A stretch of DNA of 64,000 bases from a virus, in the IMG/VR virus record IMGVR_UViG_3300031839_002042, positions 1 through 64,000 of that record. One strand, 5' to 3'. Under the pieces are notes generated by a model. That model was given only the letters and a program-made list of their open reading frames with translations, was not told where the DNA came from and did no database searches. Both the position numbers and the translations under genes were made by a program. Below are positions 24,927 to 47,644 of this stretch, piece by piece (position 1 is the stretch's first letter; each line of letters begins with the position of its first letter).

Positions 24927-27900
24927 ATGGAGCAAAACAATCCAGCAAACAATGATCTGCTTAAAAAAATCCGTGAAGCAAGGAAAGCAGCATCAAATCA
25001 GACCGACAAGGCAAGTTCAGATCTTAAAAATGCTACTCAAGATCCAGCTAAGAAATCAAATCCGCTTCTAAAGTTTGTTCAAAAACCACAAACTAACACT
25101 GCATTCACCCAGCCAGATACTTTTTCAAACCCTGTTCCACGAGAGCCACAAGCGGAACAGGGCTTTTCTACTCCTAGCCCATTGGTTAGTGATGGTTATC
25201 AAACCGTTACCAAACCATTGCCAAACCCTTCCAAACCATCCAATGTAAGAACACTGGATCAATTTAAGCCGTCTCTTCCTGTTTCAGAGATTCCAAGTCA
25301 AAACCCTACTTATAGAATACTTGGAGACCGTGATCTAAGCAGGGAAGAAACCATGCAGATGATTAGTCAGGCAAAATCAATGAAAGATCTGGAAAGGTTG
25401 CAAGTTGATAATGATCCTGAAGTAATGCAGGGATTTGAAAAAAGGATCAATGAGTTTAAAAATCAATCTTCTCAAACGCAGGTACCAGCCGAAAAACCTG
25501 TGATTGATAAACCTTGGTGGGAAGATACTTGGGATGGAATTAGATCCGGTACCAGATCGGCACTTTCTGCATTGTATGAAGGAGGTTCTGAAATAGCTGA
25601 TTATGTAGGAACTGGTGGACCAATGAACCCTAATTCTATTGGCCAATACAATATGATCAAGCAATTGCAAGCAAAAGGTTTGCGAGGTGCTGGATTAGGC
25701 GCAGGATTGAGAGAAATGGCCGACACAGAAAAGAAACGTGCGGATATCATCAACTCACAAGCAGACACTGAAAGTATAGGCTTCTTTGCAGGACAAATGA
25801 TGCCTTATGTTGCAGGAAGTGCTGCAGCAATTGCTTCGGCTCCAATTTCAGCACCATTGGCAGCAGGTTTGGGCACCGCAAACGTAGGTGCACTTGCTTT
25901 GGCTTCCGTTGGTTCTGGTTTGCAGACTTATGATCAATACAAGGCTGAAAAAGGTCAAGAAGTAGACCCTTATGCACGTCTGGGAGTTGGTCTTTTATAT
26001 GGCGGTGCAGAATTCGCCATGGAAAGGCTATCCCTGAATAAGTTGATGCCTAAGCAGTTCAAAGGAAAGGTAGCCTCAGCTATGTTCGGTGCTGTTCCTG
26101 GTGAAGTGATGGAGAAAGAGGCAAAACAACTGGTTGAAGAATTTGCTAATTCTAATTCCAGCAGAAAAGCAATGATAGATGGATTGCTTAAAGATACCGG
26201 GAAAGGTGTAATAGTAGAAGGATCCACCGAAGCAGCTACCGAAGTAGCCCAAGAATTCACCAATTGGTTGTATTACGAGAAAGAAGATAGAGGTAACTGG
26301 GAAGAACTTGCCAAAAATACCGCTACTGCATTTGCAGGAGGTGCATTGATGGGTGCAGGTTTAGGACCATTATCATATGGTTCTCAACGTTTGGTCAACA
26401 ACAAACGCAGGGAGCAAGCTGGTAAAGTTGTGATTGCACAGAATAGCAATACTGGTGAGGCAGTGGAGATTGTTGGAATATCCGGCCAGAAACCTAAGTC
26501 AGGTAAAAAATCCACAAGTTCCGGAAGTGTAGAAGGTACCGTTGGTTCATCATTAACCTATGATGTAATCCGTCCAAATGGCAGGGTTGCTCAATTAACC
26601 GAAGATGAAGTAGGTGAAGTGATAGAACTTCCTACAGATGTTTTCAAAGGTTTGCTTAACGGGAAAGTTGATGGTCAGTCTGCAGTAGAATCACGGTTGA
26701 ATCAAGAGATAGGCAGTGTAGCCCAGAACCAAGAAGAGGAATTTAAAGCCAAATACGAGCCATATACCTACAATGATCCTATCAATGGTCAGATGATCGC
26801 CATGGGTAAAAGAAATGGAGTTCCTGTTTATATCAAAACACAGACTCCAAACGGATTTCTCATTGTAGATGAAGAAGGTGTAGAAACTTTGGTGCCTCAG
26901 CAAGCATTAACAGAAGTTACACAGATGCCATTCGGTGCATTCCTGGAAACAAATGCTCCTGTTTCTCCTGAAACAGCACCTCCTTTTGATCCTACCAACC
27001 CGATTCAAGTAGGAGAACCAATAAATTATCAAGATGAAAACTGGATAGTGACTGGAATTGATATGGATTCAGGCACAATTCAACTTGAATCAGAGGATTC
27101 AGACGGAATTTTTGAAACTGTTCCAGTTGACTTGCTTCAGCAGTTGAGAAAACCAAAAGAAGAATTGCTTCAAGAATCAACCATGGACTTGGATAGTACT
27201 GGAGCAGGAAAACTCAGAAATATTTTTTCTACTGGTGATCAGGTAAAACTTGAAACCAAAGAATCAAAACTATCCGATTCAAGTCCATTCATGATTCAAG
27301 AAACATTGGACAATGTAGCTTCAAAGCTTGGTATTCCAGCTTTTAAAGCAGGTTCTGTTCATTTTTCTAAAGCGGAAGCTGAATCAAGGAAATGGCTTGT
27401 AGAAAACCTTGGTGAAAAAGGCGATGAAATTGCTGATATCATGGAGTTTCCTCAAGCAGCGAACAGATTAATCGACAGGATTATTCAGACAAAGAAAGTT
27501 GATTCAAAAAGCAATAATTCACAAACCACAACCATAAATGAGCCAATACAGCAAACCGAACCGCAGCAACAAACAGGACAAATTGATGTCCAAGAGGAAA
27601 AAAACCAAGAAAACAGCACCGAAGCATCCGAAGGACAAAAAGGGCTGGAAGGATCAGGAATAAACCAGAATGAAATTGATCGAATAAATTCTGAAAGCCA
27701 ATGGGAAGATGTTAAAACAGCATCAACCAGCGAGGATCTAGCAGAATTGTATGATGTGGAAGTCCAAAACTTGGAAGGTATTAACCCGATCGATAATGCT
27801 ATTGCACAGGTAATAGGTAAAGTCAACCCTGAATCATACGCTAGGTTTGGTGATAGGAACAATATTTCCAAAGGAAGTGCCGGTAATTGGATTTCTAAGA

Positions 27901-39900: not shown

Positions 39901-40184
39901 TTTATAAATCTGATGGAGATACAGCTTCGGCCAGAGCTTTACTTCAAGAAGAACGAGCTAAGTTTTTGATGATTGATGTAGCAAAATTGGTAAACGGTAA
40001 GTTGAAGAAAATCAATGATCAAATTGGTGCAATCAAAGAACGTGATGCTCCTGGAGATAATGAGAAGATAGAAAAGCTGTATGATCAAAGAAATCAGTTG
40101 ATGAATAAATTCAACACCTTGTATTATCAGCGTGTAACTCCTAAAAAAGAAGCACCAACAACATTGGAAGCATTATTCAAATAA
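24927..40184 (+). CDS. giant 5085-aa polyvalent protein, DarB-like anti-restriction / ejection protein candidate
   Basis: Uninterrupted 15,258-nt ORF. The MTase motifs are VLDPSSGIGNYFG (aa ~2194) and ISNIPFG (~2259). The SNF2 motifs are GAGKT (~2865), DESQ (~3029), LSGTPISN (~3081) and LIGSTETMGTGVNVQ...QRNGRGLRQGN (~3340-3380). LHEIIGH lies at ~3824 and an H-G-T / G-x-G-I-Y / E triad at ~3996-4041. Gly/Ala-rich hydrophobic stretches lie at both ends. A hairpin+T6 terminator follows. Confidence 0.85.
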   Translation: MEQNNPANNDLLKKIREARKAASNQTDKASSDLKNATQDPAKKSNPLLKFVQKPQTNTAFTQPDTFSNPVPREPQAEQGFSTPSPLVSDGYQTVTKPLPNPSKPSNVRTLDQFKPSLPVSEIPSQNPTYRILGDRDLSREETMQMISQAKSMKDLERLQVDNDPEVMQGFEKRINEFKNQSSQTQVPAEKPVIDKPWWEDTWDGIRSGTRSALSALYEGGSEIADYVGTGGPMNPNSIGQYNMIKQLQAKGLRGAGLGAGLREMADTEKKRADIINSQADTESIGFFAGQMMPYVAGSAAAIASAPISAPLAAGLGTANVGALALASVGSGLQTYDQYKAEKGQEVDPYARLGVGLLYGGAEFAMERLSLNKLMPKQFKGKVASAMFGAVPGEVMEKEAKQLVEEFANSNSSRKAMIDGLLKDTGKGVIVEGSTEAATEVAQEFTNWLYYEKEDRGNWEELAKNTATAFAGGALMGAGLGPLSYGSQRLVNNKRREQAGKVVIAQNSNTGEAVEIVGISGQKPKSGKKSTSSGSVEGTVGSSLTYDVIRPNGRVAQLTEDEVGEVIELPTDVFKGLLNGKVDGQSAVESRLNQEIGSVAQNQEEEFKAKYEPYTYNDPINGQMIAMGKRNGVPVYIKTQTPNGFLIVDEEGVETLVPQQALTEVTQMPFGAFLETNAPVSPETAPPFDPTNPIQVGEPINYQDENWIVTGIDMDSGTIQLESEDSDGIFETVPVDLLQQLRKPKEELLQESTMDLDSTGAGKLRNIFSTGDQVKLETKESKLSDSSPFMIQETLDNVASKLGIPAFKAGSVHFSKAEAESRKWLVENLGEKGDEIADIMEFPQAANRLIDRIIQTKKVDSKSNNSQTTTINEPIQQTEPQQQTGQIDVQEEKNQENSTEASEGQKGLEGSGINQNEIDRINSESQWEDVKTASTSEDLAELYDVEVQNLEGINPIDNAIAQVIGKVNPESYARFGDRNNISKGSAGNWISKKGTGKQIDLIAQEASDFYGGDNSVSTQDVIDFMEKFTSAENITQPSGNPKLKEISDKYFALTGKKLNKSKAAKIRKELKGKSISKNDKGELLESDDQIADYLSNNPSIGEFLSNEFSNEDGSLNYEEALKILDTDPDWFTVFPGGFKENEVNSIRTILTNKLNEQSGNQGTNSAVSPASEADGGNQSRNDLPEAENKVDQTGSGVVDSREQQKPDSTDPQPTGEPKSRGRKSSRSNPSSSTVKLDEKAQKLTDELKDLWGQFGAGDKLRSGVSGQDFELAGKIIAKSAELGLVKFEQIINWVGENLGQETLRQKFDSFKAAYAAQLIFNNPQNEDLNAISKKKADDFIVEEKSEQTLFEEEVSSYVDGYYTDKNGLERKIKGVKFYQDETNRILLRLEKGNIILNGKEIRDAIDNTGDGPKFSNTKSEQSEPEVKSVKNETDRPTRKDILNDSSNPFVKKFKGLSYDQVEKWRIANKQPEGKTADQFWKYYFALQAEHQYQTLKSRNPQFTENHKAKAKVNGKEVELTYTIGISDRRPIEERTMFSAVNFSASNLDHIQKGLHIQGYINNLPNWDGPQTLEEAFRRMIEQRAKESSKKIIPVTIDDFRITGPNEESVPETTPILDNSGLVQLDLFGNPINVKNAKPGKSTKNIQTLEDQEKSSRSKVETIKDRKSATKQLKVVDDLLSEIENELKLAGYYNAGDLADKNEYPHYEHEKVFKKDLVKFSKALAKELGWEHRTDKKGKPIYAQTNIAPAGGDGDFTLFDPNSNQGVYISVNVSPDYESPSDNDPLIIDGKTRNWGGSGGDNAFLWRYATKEQPYGDGQNRWADSKTSVAEFKKKILDQLPSASPATKPTSLTEMIEAGEGRIMVVKPTPDKVEQPESTSKKEESSSEKVELDPDWNQSVSKAAAAIKKLGLTIPKSKAESMFDPDLRLKQLVDFVNSYLNDTFGNENPITDGKQGSGSNGQVRPTSGQSTKREQTSTVRPNEGNRNSQEISSGEAGGNESTDGQTEGTGLRPDNSRGTGKRKTDGDSGNERVNDSEIDGFGKADQSKLEKKTKQRKKNEANFSIPEGFSYPDTFKVAERFDANIKAIELVVEMIKENRNESTPEEKQVLFGYSGFGGIPDIARNPNYTYERFDSDAMRSRVKKVYDLINEIDPDGKLGVLSSLKSSINTAHYTEPEIIRAHYDLISKMGFQSGKVLDPSSGIGNYFGSMPVPMSQDAILTGVEMDYLTSEIFRRMYPGSKAINKPLQDANIVEGTFDLAISNIPFGSTKIYDPSWKGKKQPIYRIAQQKIHNYFVVKMIESAKEGGLISILTSNAVMDTESNRPIRQYMADNTYFIGAVRLPNTAFKGASGTKVVTDILFLQKRKAGESVSQQNPFVESSTQTKDGSKYSLNEYFISNPQNILGEIVGGGQYDAETGYTVEGSAENLRSKIVAALEKSAVTINYSPANDIELAKDGRQTEAYSGKDTIRSGNVFEKNEDFYEAVERNSNGEFTGEKINVFKKYVEPFRDFISIRQSLNELIDNERFGQPDSVLDPLRKKLKSSYNKFNNNHGRLNEYKNVFSADIDSFQVLALEVLDEKGKFKGLADIFEKRTINPNIRPTSADNPQEAILISLNEYNKINPARMQELLGENWLEQSKGLLFELPNGTYESRDQYLSGDIWEKIQQVKDNPAFKENLTELEKVLPKPIPFELISIPLGARYVDIDVYNEFIKDTFNTRAKIAYLEGLDSYKMSFTIHSDEYSTSRINTNEVIEKAFSDQTIRINNTIRHSDGSTTTEFNPVETAAANAVVDKLKTAWKTWLAGKQDIGNKIAETYNRLFNSTVKRRFDGSHMTFPGLRGITPRTHQADGINMLVQNNGGIIDHVVGAGKTLIMVIGSMELKRLGVAKKPLIIGKKSTVPQIYEAFQKAYPGAKVLAPTDKDFTASKRKKILSQIAVNDWDAIILTHENYGNILPDPETAVQVMQEEIDLLKLTVEEMRGMEKSQMTRKEIKGMEKRIDNLTAKIKELSDLNKDTEIMDFGKLGIDHIMVDESQSFKNLTYSTVHNNVAGLGTKDGAKKTYNLLMGVRHLQKIHKGDKGTTFLSGTPISNTMAELYLILKYLRPNKLRELGISTFDAWAKTFAEKSSELEFGVSGALKAKERFRRFINVPELAKLYTDIADVRNDSNLKLPKPGIKGGKEDFVLIKPSRNLEKFYKKLIHYATSGDGSVMNIEGLDYSSEEAKKAKMLKITDLATKASIDLRLVYPQAPFDPNSKLANVAADIASVYKETAKHKGVALAFMDSGKTSQYNPLFNGEREIKRILIDIYGVKPDEIQLMADHQTDAKKEKLFKKVNKGEVRVLIGSTETMGTGVNVQERVLAMRHVDIPWRPSDYEQRNGRGLRQGNIIAEDFYNNEVDVKVYGVERSLDAYKFELLAIKQHFIDQIKNGATSDRIMDEGEGDEDNGASFSEFMAAATGNPIIKEKAKNDKLLDQLNTSRIAFANRQGRARAMIERYNKGIANAESVISQLELYNSIAQKTKINEDYQLLVGGKPYEKVGEAGDALLDMRPYSEQAIELMKKGGQNLTPQATANGWDLYVFDKKMIDGTPFKNYIIAVTDPETGKRYYPKSGELAQGSVYVANTLKKYVNSIENQILDNQSYIKDEATKYIEQSKKVLEEKWPDEEKYQKALADQSRIAAEVAVMNEQEGKKNAEDSDVSSPMFSDDDPNPSPDKPTFFKKPNSLSEMMDRASMRATINPVEKPASTKQVEQWANEISKNWETKPEIKVFDNASQVIKSFPELEEYKSEIAEVPGMMIRNPRTGATQVVLIASHSYLNNKEGVDITLLHEIIGHYGLREGLRQRAKGNEAEYIKKYQDLMDVIFEAKKNDPMMSDIASRYFGRKIDALTKIQQTTVADEYIAHLAQTGIKDTFTDRIISKFRELLRSIGIDLKFNDSDLLNLIGNSRRFVEGKRKVNGNITDGVKFIKVKQDQTQTPAFKAWFGNSKVVDENGEPKIMYHGTNNEFTEFKISTKGALGAGIYLTPYKEDALKHGKIAMPVYVKIENPKIVNNREEDTQLLGSSLIYRRKKGIETFDGVIDQYGQMLALDPTQIKSANGNNGDFDGTNPDIRFMKVSDGSMPTPVRKATEEVAKKSWSELATERLQDHMVMSKKLINEKTAGKDPVKDKADFYTKENLSKGRALVQSENFVNKYWNPFLETAKQIVKETGLKQSDISDYLKAKHHGERKKYFIDKERESFTAMQNAKYMFSPELQVEYSPLEWADKIDADFEKKIKKYDATWPTGMTDEWADETVSNFESTVAEKQVKTLNKQVKAMSVFVNKKRFTSGMISKTVYNELMTQYQNYVPLRDWAGLEGMNENVYSPLMSAKGRTSEAADPIPFLFTAAQEAIMRGENNLVRQSLLEFVKEHVSPGDYFIRSAWYVKTGEQDEFGNDIWKETQNKPTQAQIDSGDAMRSFDPDVHRSVQQQGERKNVLPVLVKGKKVFIEFKNSEIPMAMKNLNQEQVPGWLSPIRSYTRWLSSMYTQYSPEFGFRNLIRDMGFAGFNISTERGLKTAAKTYSQVAKSMKTLTQFFWNEGEYPTGKDGNYLKEYMEEGAMTGYSDLKEVKEIFETAKREIDGLNAKGWQGVKSKVGSGFETALKPIDVYNRTFENAMRFAYYKTLREDGVSKQQSAIAAKDLTVNFNRKGTWSAGLGSIYIFFNASVQGTQTLLSKFAKPETRKKAYGFAGSIMALGMIQSIILGLSSDDDDDGKTYYEKIPDYIRRNNIIIPLPKQGEYMKIPLPYGLNVFYAMGESLGRVITGQGKPGMEALGVASVASNAFSPLGGYDFTSDNQRPFQGVAQLFTPSALQPVTDLMLNQNFAGFPIYRENFTPTQYKRPDSQMYFEGVNPAIRTVTDALNSATGGDQVKSGLIDINPEWIEYGFEQYFGGPVQFGQNAYATLAAIAGGENILKDPYYRKVPLLRSFMQKSGTEYQIKQDYYTNYNEIQAAKQAYELYKSDGDTASARALLQEERAKFLMIDVAKLVNGKLKKINDQIGAIKERDAPGDNEKIEKLYDQRNQLMNKFNTLYYQRVTPKKEAPTTLEALFK

Positions 40185-42712: not shown

Positions 42713-42740
42713 CCCAGACTATGATTGGTCTGGGTTTTTT
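42713..42740. terminator. bidirectional terminator between the portal-like gene and the minus-strand cassette
   Basis: CCCAGAC-tatgattg-GTCTGGG followed by TTTTTT. Confidence 0.6.
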
Positions 42741-43471
42741 CTTAGATAAGGCATTGATTGTCCCATATCGCTTTCATCAAACAAATAATGAGTATTGCAT
42801 TTTTCACAATGTGATTTATAAGTCCATCCTTGATTTATTGTTCCATCGTGAATAATTTTTTCTCCACATTCTACACACAAACCTTTTCTATATTTTAAAT
42901 CTATCTGGTCTTGGGAATAGTCTTTTACAATTTGAAAATTAACACTTTCTGATTTTGATAAACCACTATTAAAATCAATAGATAAATCTACAATCCCAAT
43001 TTCACCATGCTTAAGAAACTTTGAGTTAAAAACCCCTATTTTACCGTGATCAGTTTCGATTTCAATCTTGTTAGGATGGTTCTCAGGATGAACAAGTAAA
43101 TGCGCTTCGCCTTTTTTCATGAACGGAATAGGAAGAACATCAACCCTAAATCCAATCGGGATATTAGGTATCACCATAGCATCTTTTAGTTTTATACGTT
43201 CAGATAACACCAAATCAAGCCTGTCCCCAATTCTACATCCATGTTGTGAGTGTTCCCCATTAGGTTCTTTTTCGATACCAGCTTCATCCAACCGTTGGTG
43301 AACATAATCTTTGAAGGCTTGGAGTTTAGAAGGTTTTTCTTCCAAGTGATCAATGTACGCATCCAGCGCATGGATATATTGTTTCAATTCAGGGTTTTCC
43401 TGAAACATTTTAGCAACATCCTTTGGGGTAAAATCCTCCGGAAAGAAAGTGGTAATGGTGGGACGGTTCAT
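42719..43471 (-). CDS. hypothetical protein with C-terminal zinc-ribbon
   Basis: 250 aa; the C-terminus CVECGEKIIHDGTINQGWTYKSHCEKCNTHY is a C-x2-C ... C-x2-C ribbon. Confidence 0.5.
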   Translation of the reverse strand: MNRPTITTFFPEDFTPKDVAKMFQENPELKQYIHALDAYIDHLEEKPSKLQAFKDYVHQRLDEAGIEKEPNGEHSQHGCRIGDRLDLVLSERIKLKDAMVIPNIPIGFRVDVLPIPFMKKGEAHLLVHPENHPNKIEIETDHGKIGVFNSKFLKHGEIGIVDLSIDFNSGLSKSESVNFQIVKDYSQDQIDLKYRKGLCVECGEKIIHDGTINQGWTYKSHCEKCNTHYLFDESDMGQSMPYLRKNPDQS

Positions 43472-43472
43472 T

Positions 43473-43685
43473 TTATTGTTTTTTAGGTATAAATTTTAAT
43501 CCGTAACCAAATGAACCTGAATTATCTTTTCCATATTTGGCATTCAAAGGATTTTCATGCAACCATAGATAAAAGATGAATTTTTTGATATCGGTTCGTT
43601 CTTGTTTAAAATCCTCATACAAGTTGTGTTGAGCCCTAATTTCATCGCTTATTTCAAAGCATTCATGCACTGGTCTAAATTCCAT
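43473..43685 (-). CDS. hypothetical protein
   Basis: 70-aa ORF. Confidence 0.4.
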   Translation of the reverse strand: MEFRPVHECFEISDEIRAQHNLYEDFKQERTDIKKFIFYLWLHENPLNAKYGKDNSGSFGYGLKFIPKKQ

Positions 43686-43688
43686 ACC

Positions 43689-43946
43689 TCAATCAATAAA
43701 ACCTCTATTTTTCAATGTTTTTGGATCACAAAGGATCGCTTTATCCGAATATTCATGTTCTGAAAGCTCTAGATATACAGGAACTTTCCCATTGATCAGT
43801 TCTTTGCTGTCATAGGTACGGCCTTTCTTGCCTGACTTAGTGATTACTAGCTGTCCTGGGTTTTTCATAGGAGTATTAACATTAAATCTTAGGTAAGTCA
43901 TTAAAATTGATTTCTCTCCTATTCTCATTCTCTTTATGCTCTGCAT
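43689..43946 (-). CDS. hypothetical protein
   Basis: 85-aa ORF. Confidence 0.4.
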   Translation of the reverse strand: MQSIKRMRIGEKSILMTYLRFNVNTPMKNPGQLVITKSGKKGRTYDSKELINGKVPVYLELSEHEYSDKAILCDPKTLKNRGFID

Positions 43947-44160
43947 GAGAAATTACCACATTCAGAACATCCCGAAGAACTTGGATAAGTTGGCCACATT
44001 CAGCTATAGATAATGGCAGGTCAGCAGCTTTTCCCTTGAGTATCACTACATCATTATTAGTATCAGCTACAAAGTTTAAGGCTATGCCTCCTTTTGAAAA
44101 CTGAAATCCTGTAATATTAACCGTAGCCTGATCCTTACTTTCGCTCATTTTTTTGGTCAA
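43882..44160 (-). CDS. hypothetical protein
   Basis: 92-aa ORF; overlaps the downstream gene by 65 nt, so the true start may be later. Confidence 0.35.
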   Translation of the reverse strand: MTKKMSESKDQATVNITGFQFSKGGIALNFVADTNNDVVILKGKAADLPLSIAECGQLIQVLRDVLNVVISHAEHKENENRREINFNDLPKI

Positions 44161-44476
44161 TAGTATGAATCATGAAAAATAGACTTGTAATCAGATCACT
44201 AAATTCAGTAGGAACTGTAGTGATTTCGTATTGACCAAATTTGTTTCGATTAATATTGAACCCTTCTCTTCTGAGATAGGAAATATGCCTATCAATGGTT
44301 CTTTTTGAAACATTCAACTCTTTCGCCAACGTTCTTAAGTGAATTGGTTTTTCAGAAAGAATCTTCACTAATTCAAACCTTTCAGATATATTAGAAATGA
44401 AATTTACTTGGGTTTTATTCCTTTTCAATCGGTCATAATCTCTAACCAATACAGACATTTCTTCGACTTCCATCAT
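44135..44476 (-). CDS. HTH-domain transcriptional regulator
   Basis: LRTLAKELNVSKRTIDRHISYLRREG is an HTH_11/DeoR-like helix-turn-helix. Confidence 0.55.
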   Translation of the reverse strand: MMEVEEMSVLVRDYDRLKRNKTQVNFISNISERFELVKILSEKPIHLRTLAKELNVSKRTIDRHISYLRREGFNINRNKFGQYEITTVPTEFSDLITSLFFMIHTIDQKNERK

Positions 44477-44645
44477 AACTTAATTTTAGTGTTAGGGATC
44501 AAACCGATTATCAAGCCTTTTGGCGTACTGACAGGGAGCATTTTCTTATCCAGTTTTTTATGATCCAATCCATTTTCCTTGCACAGGACATCCAGTGAAT
44601 AATACAGCTTGTATTCATTCCCATTATGTAGTAAATACTCCATAG

Positions 44646-44972
44646 TTATACTTTTAAGAACCGAACAGACAGGTAATTTTTAGTAGGAACCTCTTTCAAT
44701 TCACAGCCAATTTCTCTGGATCTAAGTTCCATGGCAGATTTCTCATTGTTCCACATGTTTTTTAGAGCGGATTTAAGAATCACAGATCTATTGGAAATCT
44801 CCACTGTATCACCTGCGTTAACTTCAGAATAATCCTTTACCGCTCCATTGAAAGGAAGTTTATCATAATTCCATGTCATAGCTTGATTTTGTCTAATTGT
44901 TTTTGGTGGATTTATTGTGAATGCAATGAAAACATTGAATATCCCAAGGGCTATAGATTTGATTCGCTGCAT
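44646..44972 (-). CDS. small secreted protein
   Basis: 108 aa; N-terminal signal-like MQRIKSIALGIFNVFIAFT. Confidence 0.45.
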   Translation of the reverse strand: MQRIKSIALGIFNVFIAFTINPPKTIRQNQAMTWNYDKLPFNGAVKDYSEVNAGDTVEISNRSVILKSALKNMWNNEKSAMELRSREIGCELKEVPTKNYLSVRFLKV

Positions 44973-44985
44973 AAGATTGTTGTTT

Positions 44986-45013
44986 AAAAAGTCCCGGATT
45001 ACGGCACCGGGAC
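44986..45013 (-). terminator. rho-independent terminator on the minus strand, downstream of the tRNA-like element
   Basis: Minus strand reads GTCCCGG-tgccgtaat-CCGGGAC followed by TTTTT. Confidence 0.6.
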
Positions 45014-45062
45014 AAACCTGCTCGACACGCTAAAACACATTTGCTTCATTCGCTTGTGGTTG

Positions 45063-45087
45063 TGGAGAATACAGGATTCGAACCTGT
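45063..45087 (-). other. tRNA 3'-end-like fragment (T-arm plus acceptor 3' strand), candidate att core or pseudo-tRNA
   Basis: Minus strand reads ACAGG-TTCGAAT-CCTGT-ATTCTCC-A, a perfect T-stem/T-loop followed by a 7-nt acceptor strand and discriminator. No D-arm or anticodon arm folds upstream. Confidence 0.5.
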
Positions 45088-45304
45088 GAAGTACCACCAG
45101 ATGAAAGGCAGCCTGACTAAAGAAAAGCAATCATCCCATTCCCCTAGTTAAAATAAAAGGCCAACTCCTTTTTCGGCATCTAAATGTTCCGTAGTCGGGT
45201 TTTTTCGGAATTCTGACAGGTGTTGTTACTCCTGAAATTGTGATTGACAAATACCCATATCAAGCACTCCACACATGGACTATATAGGAACGGTATGTAT
45301 ATCT

Positions 45305-45661
45305 TTATTTTTTATTTCTTCTAATCTGATCTCCAGGAATGATCTGAAAATTCACCCTGTCACCTACTTGAAATGCACCAGGATATTCCACTATCCAAAC
45401 AGACCTTGCATTTATTCCTCCTGGGTTGATCGGGATGATTTTATAGAACACAAAGCCTTCGGACCATTTGTATTCCAGTGTTTTCATTTCTGAAACAGCC
45501 CAGATTGTAGGTTCCTCAGGAATATTCATGTTGCGCTTTGCTACGCAACCAAAAAAGGCCATTACCATAAATGAGATCACCACAATCATGACGATTAGCG
45601 TTCTCACTAAGTATTTCAAACCTTCTTTGAAAATATCTTCGAATGGATCTTCAGCTGACAT
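45305..45661 (-). CDS. membrane protein
   Basis: 118 aa with one TM helix (LIVMIVVISFMVMAFF). Confidence 0.45.
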   Translation of the reverse strand: MSAEDPFEDIFKEGLKYLVRTLIVMIVVISFMVMAFFGCVAKRNMNIPEEPTIWAVSEMKTLEYKWSEGFVFYKIIPINPGGINARSVWIVEYPGAFQVGDRVNFQIIPGDQIRRNKK

Positions 45662-46052
45662 GATTCGCCTCCTTTCTATTCATTTCCAACTTGTTTTTAT
45701 CGACCACTAATCCTTGATCGATATATTCATCTCCAAAAATCCAGAAGTGATGTTTTACCAGTTCTTGGTAATAGTGATACCTCAGATTACCAGATAGCAA
45801 TCCTTGGATATTTGATGCCGAAAACAATGGATTCCAACCAAATTGATCTCCAAGTGATTTTTCACTGCCTTCTGGAATATAATAATGAAGCCATGCAAGC
45901 CTATAGCAAACGGGTTTACCATTACCTTTTTCGATAGCTCTTATATGTGTTACAGATTGAAGAGGTAATAACTCACGATATGAAGTATCAATTAATAAAC
46001 CAGTGTTTAGGTAAAGTTTTAATTGATCAAAAGTGATTTTCAACTCAGGCAT
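45651..46052 (-). CDS. hypothetical protein
   Basis: 133 aa; SD-like GAGGAGG upstream. Confidence 0.45.
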   Translation of the reverse strand: MPELKITFDQLKLYLNTGLLIDTSYRELLPLQSVTHIRAIEKGNGKPVCYRLAWLHYYIPEGSEKSLGDQFGWNPLFSASNIQGLLSGNLRYHYYQELVKHHFWIFGDEYIDQGLVVDKNKLEMNRKEANHVS

Positions 46053-46431
46053 TTTTAACCTCCTCTCTAGTTACTTCCAGATGCGACACTTTTAAAAGTT
46101 CCTCAAAATTGACATGAGGATTAAACAAGATGGTACCATCCACTTTGAAACCTTCCATAATCTCATGCTTTACTGCAGCTTCAAAAGCACAATAGGCAGT
46201 TTTGATTACTTCATCATCCGTCATACCTTCAGACAGGTACCATTTACGGCCTTTCCATAGCATTTTTTCACCTGTATGGGTACATGGAGAAAAGTACTCA
46301 CATTGGATATAAAGCCTTCCATTGTTGTGCGCCTGGTCTGACTTTACCACAAACTGGAAATTACACCCGAGCAATCCTGCTGAAACTCTGTTCAGAAGAT
46401 TGATTACTTTTTGTTTTTTTGAGATTAGCAT
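46045..46431 (-). CDS. hypothetical protein
   Basis: Start moved to the internal Met MLISKKQ, whose ATG is fused to the CAATCAGGA motif. Confidence 0.4.
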   Translation of the reverse strand: MLISKKQKVINLLNRVSAGLLGCNFQFVVKSDQAHNNGRLYIQCEYFSPCTHTGEKMLWKGRKWYLSEGMTDDEVIKTAYCAFEAAVKHEIMEGFKVDGTILFNPHVNFEELLKVSHLEVTREEVKNA

Positions 46432-46510
46432 TCCTGATTGATTTGATTGATTCCTAAAATTTGCCACTGTTGGTAGGCACTGGCGACCGTCCTTTATCAA
46501 AAGCTCCTAG

Positions 46511-47104
46511 TTACTTCTTGGGTGACCGAAACAACTTCCCAGCATTTGGCAGTTTTGCTGCGCTTAATGGTTTACCAAACTTGGCAAAAGCCTTGTTTTC
46601 AAATGATTTATTAATTTTCCTTTTTCTGATTTTCCCAGTGGGATTATTGACGAAGGTTTTTTTCACCTCTGCATAATCCATACATACTACCTCACCTTTA
46701 CAAACCACAATTCCATTCTTGAAATAGGAAGGTGATTCATGGTATTTTTGCAACACTAAAAGGAAATCTTCTGTTTTGTCATAAACAACCGAAACAGCAT
46801 ATCCCTGAGCATGCATTTGAACCAAAAAATCAAACTGTTTCAAGGTGAGCTTATTTTTACCGACTTTTAATTCGATCCAAATTCCTTTGTTTTCACCGGA
46901 AGATCCAGTGAATAAAATATCACTTACCCCGTCTATTCCTTTCAAGGCTAAATACTTAACCTGCTCAAAACCAGTTCTTTTGCCTTCATTTGGGCAGTGA
47001 ATGAAAGGAGCGTTAGGATAGTTTATTTCTCCTTTTCTTATACAGTCCTCGTGAAGAATATCTTCCTTGGACAGCCATCCCCTCATTGTGGTAGGTTTTG
47101 CCAT
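46511..47104 (-). CDS. VRR-NUC domain nuclease
   Basis: GIDGVSDILFTGSSGENKGIWIELKVGKNKLTLKQFDFLVQMHAQGYAVSVVYD matches the VRR-NUC PD-(D/E)xK core; basic C-terminal tail. Confidence 0.65.
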   Translation of the reverse strand: MAKPTTMRGWLSKEDILHEDCIRKGEINYPNAPFIHCPNEGKRTGFEQVKYLALKGIDGVSDILFTGSSGENKGIWIELKVGKNKLTLKQFDFLVQMHAQGYAVSVVYDKTEDFLLVLQKYHESPSYFKNGIVVCKGEVVCMDYAEVKKTFVNNPTGKIRKRKINKSFENKAFAKFGKPLSAAKLPNAGKLFRSPKK

Positions 47105-47239
47105 ATTATTTCCTGATTGTTTGATTGATTGGATGTAAATCTAAAGTCAAAAAATTAAAATGCAATATTTTTCTTAATTTATTTTCCATAATACGTTGCA
47201 AAATACATTTTAAAACTATCTTAGTGCAACGAAAAGTGA

Positions 47240-47644
47240 ATGAGCAATAACAAGAAAGACAAGCTGGAAGTAAGCGCATTTAAACCCATTGAAACTTTCC
47301 ATGTCGGGAACATTGTCAAGTCTATTCGGGAACAATCAAGTCAGTTCCAGGACACGATTGATTTAGTGACAAATGACCGGAGTATCAGGATCAGTGACAA
47401 TAGAGGTAAGATCGCCAAGGATGCAGTAAAATTTGCCGAGAAAACTATTCTGGCTTATCAGGAGCCTGAAAAACTTGGAAAGCTTACACCATGGCAGCAA
47501 AGGGAGATTTTAGGAATGATCAATGACCTATTATCGGGAAAACGTGAGTGTGTCCACTTCCAGATGAATCGTAATTGTGATGGCATCAAAGAGCTTTTTT
47601 CAAACAGAGAATTTTCAATCAATCAATCAGATCAGGAAAAATGA
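47240..47644 (+). CDS. hypothetical protein
   Basis: 134-aa ORF. Confidence 0.45.
   Translation: MSNNKKDKLEVSAFKPIETFHVGNIVKSIREQSSQFQDTIDLVTNDRSIRISDNRGKIAKDAVKFAEKTILAYQEPEKLGKLTPWQQREILGMINDLLSGKRECVHFQMNRNCDGIKELFSNREFSINQSDQEK

Follow-up and report, generated by a model that had tools for sequence, protein, structure and literature searches.

In mobile elements, partial and degenerate tRNA genes are frequent (PMC9897764), and the pseudo-tRNAs catalogued by van der Gulik et al. 2023 (PMC9897764) typically represent 3' or 5' portions of tRNA genes that have been duplicated and flank the element as direct repeats. Here, a related locus is described from a 64,000-nt stretch of viral DNA, positions 1 to 64,000 of the IMG/VR record IMGVR_UViG_3300031839_002042 (hereinafter, the window). 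It is a tRNA-Ala-type element of the minus strand in which the acceptor stem and the T-arm (jointly, the acceptor/T minihelix) are intact and display the alanine identity set G3·U70, G2-C71, G4-C69, and A73. With moderate confidence, it is regarded here as a solitary, full-length, non-decoding relic left by a tRNA-Ala gene that was either phage-borne or captured and the body of which was replaced or scrambled. Among the described systems, it most resembles the degenerate or partial tRNA genes of mobile elements (PMC9897764). Like them, it is tRNA-derived and resides in a mobile element, its T-arm and acceptor are recognisable, it falls short of the canonical tRNA model, and it is easily misread, whether by eye or by gene finders; unlike them, it is internal, unpaired, and keeps both acceptor strands.

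Several other systems invite comparison. The canonical and phage tRNA-Ala(UGC) genes, including the phage lineage beginning GGGGAATGGGAC (L007-L057), have in common with the element the strands GGGGAAT/ATTCTCC, G3·U70, A73, and the loop TTCGAAT, and the phage lineage additionally shares G8-G9-G10-A11. However, the element is 82 nt long vs. 72-77 nt in these genes and solitary vs. arrays of 10-30; it shows no shared synteny or protein homology with them, and its D arm, anticodon arm, and UGC anticodon are unrecognisable. Transfer-messenger RNA (tmRNA, SsrA), which is charged with alanine without an anticodon, likewise joins a canonical T-arm to an acceptor stem bearing G3·U70 and A73, and its D region is reduced and non-canonical. 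Still, it comprises about 350-400 nt, whereas the element has only 50 nt between the strands, no tag reading frame, and no pseudoknots; the tmRNA search with ARAGORN (relaxed settings included) and the Rfam search were both negative for tmRNA.

Alanyl-tRNA synthetase (AlaRS) recognises the acceptor stem, not the anticodon, and alanine minihelices are substrates of this enzyme; Francklyn and Schimmel reportedly demonstrated it in 1989 for synthetic minihelices and microhelices. The coaxial acceptor/T-arm helix with G3·U70 of such constructs is preserved in the element, but those are laboratory molecules, and the element occurs in nature and includes 50 nt of body that they lack. Finally, phage attachment-site (attP) cores copy the 3' end of a host tRNA, and the 3' end of the element is identical over 25 nt to that of real tRNA-Ala genes. 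Unlike such cores, the element is not beside the integrase, lacks a repeat partner, and possesses its own 5' strand, and the prophage uses a tRNA-Lys site. To our knowledge, non-decoding mimics of aminoacyl-tRNAs encoded by phages do not form an established class.

Extent and terminal stems of the element

The element consists of the following parts:

45063-45144, minus strand: whole tRNA-Ala-type element, 82 nt (GGGGAAT + 50-nt body + T-arm + ATTCTCC + A73)
45138-45144, minus strand: 5' acceptor strand GGGGAAT (positions 1-7), 7/7 pairs with 45064-45070, including G3·U70
45088-45137, minus strand: non-canonical 50-nt body in place of the D arm, anticodon arm, and variable loop
45071-45087, minus strand: canonical T-arm, 5-bp stem ACAGG/CCTGT and 7-nt loop TTCGAAT, unique in the window
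45063-45070, minus strand: 3' acceptor strand ATTCTCC (positions 66-72) and discriminator A73

The original prediction had reported an orphan tRNA 3' fragment at 45040-45090, i.e., a perfect T-arm plus a 3' acceptor strand on the minus strand. These are indeed read directly in the minus-strand letters, ACAGG-TTCGAAT-CCTGT (45087-45071), ATTCTCC (45070-45064), and A (45063), and they lie inside that span, but the span covers only the 3' third of the element. On the same strand, 50 nt 5' of the T-arm/3' acceptor segment, GGGGAAT closes the acceptor stem with all seven pairs formed (G1-C72, G2-C71, G3·U70, G4-C69, A5-U68, A6-U67, and U7-A66). Since both strands close an 82-nt molecule, the element is not a 3' fragment. 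Thus, the statement that it is not a full tRNA stands insofar as a canonical D or anticodon arm was not detected, but not in the sense of a mere 3' end. The annotation is corrected accordingly: the apparent orphan tRNA 3' end or second attachment site is a whole but degenerate tRNA-Ala-type gene.

Both end stems follow the canonical tRNA pattern, i.e., a 7-bp acceptor stem with one G·U pair and the discriminator base A73, and a 5-bp T stem with the 7-nt loop T54-T55-C56-R57-A58. Together, G3·U70, A73, G2-C71, and G4-C69 supply the acceptor-stem sequence of an AlaRS substrate. The CCA end is not encoded (A73 is followed by CAA), as is also the case for the host's own tRNA-Lys gene. GGGGAAT is the 5' strand of the tRNA-Ala genes ending ATTCTCCA, found in 54 viral loci and 4 genomes; the acceptor strands and the T-loop of the element are identical to those of these canonical genes, and the same stem is present in ARAGORN-called genes.

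Gene finders can fold unrelated upstream sequence onto genuine tRNA 3' fragments (PMC9897764), and for this reason a chance control of the 5' strand is important. Judged from its frequency in the window, an exact GGGGAAT is expected by chance at a tRNA-compatible spacing (a molecule of 70-95 nt) with p≈0.001, and any Watson-Crick or G·U complement with p≈0.008. A second GGGGAATGG in the window falls within the portal gene, consistent with chance. The 3' part is equally distinctive: the T-loop core GGTTCGAATCC occurs only once in both strands of the 64-kb window (128 kb of sequence), and the 25-mer at 45087-45063 is unique in the window even at 3 mismatches, with 0 matches in 100 shuffles.

The Rfam tRNA model (RF00005) aligns end to end (model positions 1-71) over 45144-45063, with 21.8 bits and a local E-value of 0.074. 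This is not a gathering-level match, the Rfam gathering cut-off (GA) for tRNA being 29 bits: the model matches the acceptor stem and the T-arm, and the D and anticodon arms are replaced by a 40-nt insertion. A fortuitous resemblance in an intergenic spacer could claim in its favour this sub-threshold score and the negative ARAGORN result (see below). However, the 25-mer expectation of 0.00 in shuffles, the uniqueness of GGTTCGAATCC in 128 kb, and the independent exact closure by GGGGAAT (p≈0.001) leave it effectively refuted.

The non-canonical body and decoding capacity

A complete cloverleaf was sought with ARAGORN, including relaxed settings, and none was recovered. The program returned 0 genes in the default mode, at the 95, 90, or 80% thresholds, and in the intron, mitochondrial, and tmRNA modes. 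It calls the element only at 70% ('tRNA-???') or in the mitochondrial mode at 80% ('Glu, ttc'), in both cases amid many spurious calls; the 'Glu (ttc)' call stands among 11 of them within 450 nt.

If pairing of both end stems is imposed, the body can adopt a cloverleaf-like arrangement of -23.0 kcal/mol, composed of two 6-bp hairpins with 8-nt loops (CUUUUCUU and UUUCAUCU) and a 5-nt linker. This fold is not special, as 22% of body shuffles fold as well, and the unconstrained minimum free energy fold (z = -1.04) gives no evidence of structure. In place of a D arm, there is no G18-G19; the candidate loop CUUUUCUU is devoid of G, and the linker has 4 nt, not 2. An anticodon arm combining a 5-bp stem with a 7-nt loop that carries U33 and R37 is likewise missing, the best-folding arm having an 8-nt loop. 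In the register with a 7-nt loop, CUUUCAU, 4/5 stem pairs form, three of them G·U, and the position closing the loop is a C×C mismatch. The body lacks the UGC anticodon, and a local repeat search yielded trivial 10-11-nt repeats only.

These features bear on the reading of the element as a non-canonical decoder, i.e., an alanine-charged tRNA using the UUC-containing loop CUUUCAU or the 8-nt anticodon loop UUUCAUCU in missense- or frameshift-type decoding. In its favour, the sequence can be drawn as a cloverleaf-like four-way junction whose variable loop has 5 nt, CTTTCAT can be aligned to the loop CTTGCAC of the phage tRNA-Ala lineage, and the ARAGORN call 'Glu (ttc)' (mitochondrial mode, 80%) falls on the element coordinates. 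Nevertheless, that call is embedded among the 11 spurious ones, the stem pairing is poor, G18-G19 is missing, the linker at positions 8-11 has 4 nt, and the Rfam score is sub-threshold, making this reading very improbable. Lacking G18-G19, a 7-nt loop on a sound 5-bp stem, and covariance-model support for the body, the element should not decode, and we conclude that it cannot be called a decoding tRNA.

A possible ancestor was looked for in the phage tRNA-Ala(UGC) lineage beginning GGGGAATGGGAC, also designated here by GGGGAATGGGA. The lineage loci are L007-L009, L013-L017, L019, L024, L027, L029, L034, L037, L039, L041, L044, L048, L051, L052, L055, L057, L074, L075, and L077. U8-A9 is near-universal in tRNAs; this lineage has G8-G9 instead, its D stem covaries, CAG invariably precedes the T stem, and its variable region spans 7-20 nt; the lineage is always found inside arrays of 10-30 tRNAs in large phages. 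Its further traits are G10-C25 with a covarying 11-24 pair and the UGC loop CTTGCAM. The element has G8-G9-G10-A11 in common with the lineage. In global alignments tested against shuffled bodies, its body showed no significant similarity to tRNA-Ala bodies (p = 0.24 for the GGGGAATGGGA lineage and 0.25 for ordinary tRNA-Ala); with the first 4 nt left out, the probability rose to p = 0.45.

A covariance model, R1, was built from 19 members of the lineage. The body is not alignable by R1 and is without the UGC anticodon, so the element does not belong to this lineage. A tblastn search with all open reading frames (ORFs) of the window against the flanks of the 54 viral tRNA-Ala loci gave no match, hence no synteny with the GGGGAATGGGA lineage. 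As an ancestor, the lineage has mostly been dropped in view of the body shuffle results (p = 0.24-0.45) and the ascertainment bias of R1.

Homologues of the locus were not found in wider searches either. The spacer together with the 24 kb around it had no match among 50,697 phage records; in viral contigs, neither the exact 25-mer, nor either body hairpin in exact searches, nor relatives of the flanking proteins were present. A scan of a metagenome collection (without the source contig) for long-body Ala-type elements produced 7 loci, none homologous to the body. Two ARAGORN-negative loci, L071:1478-1574 (97 nt) and L072:11-109 (99 nt), combine an intact Ala-type acceptor stem and T-arm with long, odd bodies; the former resembles a tRNA-Ala with a 29-nt AT-rich loop in the place of the anticodon loop.

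Genomic context, expression, and origin of the element

The surroundings of the element are as follows:

45305-45661, minus strand: upstream ORF, 118 aa, no family
44973-45304: spacer between two small same-strand ORFs, 332 nt
45150-45177, minus strand: weak A/T-rich hairpin with a T-rich tract, scored as terminator-like by the consensus scan, 5 pairs, -5.5 kcal/mol, z = -0.38, no better than shuffles
45014-45062, minus strand: 3' trailer from the element to the terminator, 49 nt, no significant structure (fold z = +0.26)
44986-45013, minus strand: intrinsic-terminator-like hairpin GTCCCGG-tgccgtaat-CCGGGAC + T5, -13.3 kcal/mol, z = -2.06
44646-44972, minus strand: downstream ORF, 108 aa, orphan

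Both hairpins named in the original prediction are real features of the spacer: the downstream one with its T5 tract lies exactly at 44986-45013 and is stable, and the weak A/T hairpin upstream is present at 45150-45177. From the end of the downstream terminator-like hairpin to the start codon (ATG) of the next ORF there are 13 nt, and a consensus terminator scanner skipped this hairpin only since its 9-nt loop exceeds the 8-nt limit of the program. The T-tract of the weak hairpin ends about 6 nt (TAACTA) 5' of G1. A simple consensus scan of the 186 nt upstream found no Bacteroidota -7 box (TAnnTTTG, at least 5/6 positions), and no sigma-70-like site was found between the upstream ORF and the element. 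With no promoter motif, any transcription is most likely read-through from the upstream minus-strand genes, the 118-aa ORF being the likely source, and ends at 44986-45013.

The 118-aa protein has only 3 distant relatives (P0002-P0004) among 5.8 billion proteins, and directly after each of them the next ORF follows without a spacer; the relatives L003-L006 lack the spacer. The sole match of the 108-aa protein in the same collection is itself, on 4 contigs. As the relatives lack the spacer and the downstream gene is an orphan, the spacer, and probably the downstream gene, are specific to this phage.

Under the favoured reading, i.e., a relic of a tRNA-Ala gene, the element would be transcribed, if at all, when transcription of the minus-strand genes upstream reads through into it, with the strong terminator at 44986-45013 ending the transcript. 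Given what is established about tRNA biochemistry, RNase P should then still cut before G1 of the intact minihelix, the 3' end should be trimmed at A73 and provided with a CCA tail, and the minihelix might be charged by AlaRS; decoding would not be expected. The body would have been exchanged in a single recent event at a mosaic junction specific to this phage, a scenario favoured because of this junction, the missing promoter, and the lack of homologues. Hence, of the origins offered by the original prediction, a decayed phage tRNA is in essence the favoured one, except that the element is full-length rather than a 3' fragment and that the decay is confined to the body.

Certain observations weigh against a relic. 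All 12 base pairs of the minihelix and the T-loop consensus are perfect, and the body is without detectable similarity to tRNA-Ala; slow uniform decay would not produce such a combination, which points either to a recent single replacement of the body or to selection acting on the minihelix. The likeness to the GGGGAATGGGA lineage beyond the stems amounts to 4 nt only. The R1 score of the element (35.9 bits, E-value 5e-8, with the D and anticodon arms skipped, 35 model positions vs. 41 nt) is inflated, largely by construction, as the lineage was picked with a pattern that the element itself matches. In addition, the four recovered copies show no variation, every other contig carrying the locus (from three or four samples) being 100% identical over 1.8-11 kb; they thus give no measure of covariation, constraint, or decay, and a relic is what we infer rather than observe.

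The contrast between the intact minihelix with its full alanine identity set and the diverged body is also the pattern expected if selection concerned the minihelix only, which speaks for another explanation at the expense of a relic. According to it, the element would give rise to a functional tRNA-like RNA in which an alanine-accepting acceptor/T minihelix is maintained, comparable to the tRNA-like domain of tmRNA without the mRNA part. Once cut by RNase P and provided with CCA, such an RNA would be charged by AlaRS or bound by factors that bind tRNA. As a decoy or sink, it could sequester AlaRS, EF-Tu, SmpB, or a nuclease of a tRNA-targeting defence; alternatively, it could donate alanine to a non-ribosomal transferase or provide the upstream mRNA with a 3'-terminal signal for RNase P processing and stabilisation. 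The neighbours on the same strand and the dedicated strong terminator 49 nt downstream are compatible with it, as are the established charging of alanine minihelices by AlaRS and the existence of other ARAGORN-negative Ala-type elements with long bodies in metagenomes (L071-L073). However, the latter are unrelated to one another and to this body; all copies of the locus being identical, there is no conservation signal, and no body homologue was found. The body folds no better than its shuffles, a promoter motif is missing, and the spacer is absent from the nearest relatives.

Overall, a functional RNA seems unlikely, and its more specific version is still less probable, namely that a temperate Bacteroidota phage might encode a minimal alanine-accepting tRNA-like RNA whose minihelix is selected and whose body drifts, serving as an alanylated decoy or sink or as an alanine donor outside translation. 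If it were true that the minihelix is expressed and charged, the element would offer a simple handle on phage manipulation of host tRNA-handling enzymes or tRNA-targeting defences.

Attachment site, prophage limits, and host

The window belongs to a prophage of ~68 kb within a 98-kb metagenomic contig, with chromosomal genes beyond both ends. A flanking GAPDH is identical to that of Algoriphagus aestuarii, which places the host in Algoriphagus (Cytophagales, Bacteroidota). A 240-bp direct repeat, the copies of which differ by 3 mismatches, delimits the prophage; it includes an entire tRNA-Lys(UUU) gene along with a duplicate of the 3' end of this gene:

L069:11963-12202: attachment (att) repeat, integrase side, 287-526 nt left of window position 1
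L067:14927-15166: att repeat, far side, window-equivalent 67353-67592

The tRNA-Lys repeat is the true att of this prophage, a conventional integrase-proximal tRNA site that gives a prophage of ~68 kb. The integrase gene at 1-1218 lies beside it (287 nt) and 44 kb from the element; the remoteness of the element from the integrase had thus been described correctly. Its proposed role as a second attachment site is not supported, given the tRNA-Lys att, the lack of a second Ala-type copy or of a recombinase nearby, and the 5' strand of its own. A scar bounding the minus-strand cassette is likewise unsupported, since the cassette spans 42719-47279 and the element, with its own 5' acceptor strand, sits mid-cassette, not at the edge. 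In this way, the prophage boundaries are settled (about 68 kb in the Algoriphagus chromosome), and a false att lead is removed.

The suggested search for a direct repeat, in the window and the flanks, found no partner: there is no second Ala-type 3' segment in the window at up to 3 mismatches or in the flanks L066, L067, and L069 at up to 5 substitutions, and the 5' part of the segment is similarly without a second copy in the flanks or elsewhere in the window. No recombinase domain is present in the neighbouring ORFs. The element accordingly does not fit an att core or scar, being without a repeat partner and without an integrase or recombinase nearby, and having both acceptor strands.

For an origin as a secondary attP/attB core, or as a remnant of an element once inserted in a tRNA-Ala-like target, there is the 25-nt stretch CAGGTTCGAATCCTGTATTCTCCAC, identical to the 3' end of real tRNA-Ala(UGC) genes. 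True orphan fragments of the same 3' end exist as well, e.g., in Chryseobacterium (L061), tRNA fragments left by integration are common (PMC9897764), and the position of the element is that of a mosaic junction, as relatives have neither the spacer nor the orphan gene downstream. The tRNA-Lys att, the missing partner repeat, and the missing recombinase oppose it, and the 5' strand (p≈0.001) is explained neither by a 3' core nor by a scar. In addition, none of the matching tRNA-Ala genes belongs to the Algoriphagus host. A small residual probability is kept for this origin, mainly due to the mosaic junction, and we consider it quite improbable.

An identical 22-nt 3' end was encountered in canonical tRNA-Ala(UGC) genes of 4 (L062-L065) out of about 185,000 species genomes: three metagenome-assembled genomes labelled Muribaculaceae and one of Bacilli, none of them the Algoriphagus host. 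Hence, tRNA genes sharing this 3' end, the absence of which would have told against the original prediction, do exist, but none of those encountered comes from the host. The orphan tRNA-Ala 3' fragment of Chryseobacterium rhizoplanae (GGTTCGAATCCTGTATTCTCCA; NZ_FXTC01000001.1, L061:4137-4158) is without a 5' part and is not called by ARAGORN. It is an object of the sort that the original prediction assumed for the window, and in that genome it is probably the mark of an integrated element.

The ordinary tRNA genes of the prophage sit elsewhere, none of them within the window. Canonical tRNA-Arg(UCU) and tRNA-Pro(UGG) genes occur at L067:14647-14843 (window-equivalent about 67073-67269); since they lie just inside the far att repeat, they are probably carried by the phage. 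In the att repeat, a second copy of the tRNA-Lys 3' end (CCCCAGCGGGATCAC) is situated 63 nt downstream of the tRNA-Lys(UUU) gene. The 240-bp repeat is unusually long, which suggests repeated integration events at tRNA-Lys. Both att copies are preceded by a cut-off tRNA-Lys-like 5' part that stops after GGTTCGAGTC (L069:11930-12006 and L067:15123-15195). These parts possess neither a 3' T-stem nor an acceptor strand and have an 8-nt 'anticodon' loop; in the one on the integrase side, the 18-nt palindrome TCCCGATAGCAATCGGGA is inserted in the D-loop.

The palindrome TCCCGATAGCWATCGGGA was considered as a tRNA-specific feature and discarded, since it proved to be a dispersed repeat and is absent from the window. 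The dispersed palindromic repeat TCCCGATAGC(N)ATCGGGA is represented by 58 copies in 51 IMG/VR contigs (L082-L132). These lie in numerous intergenic settings unrelated to one another, often within larger hairpins; the repeat is also found at L069:11944-11961. Occasionally, it resides within tRNA D-loops, e.g., in the tRNA-Ala(GGC)-like gene L073:86-174. In Bacteroidota and their phages, it may serve as a protein-binding site or constitute a miniature mobile palindrome. A further peculiarity of the prophage is a single ORF of 5085 aa (window positions 24927-40184, plus strand), which takes up 15 kb of it between a 435-aa ORF and a P22-like portal gene.

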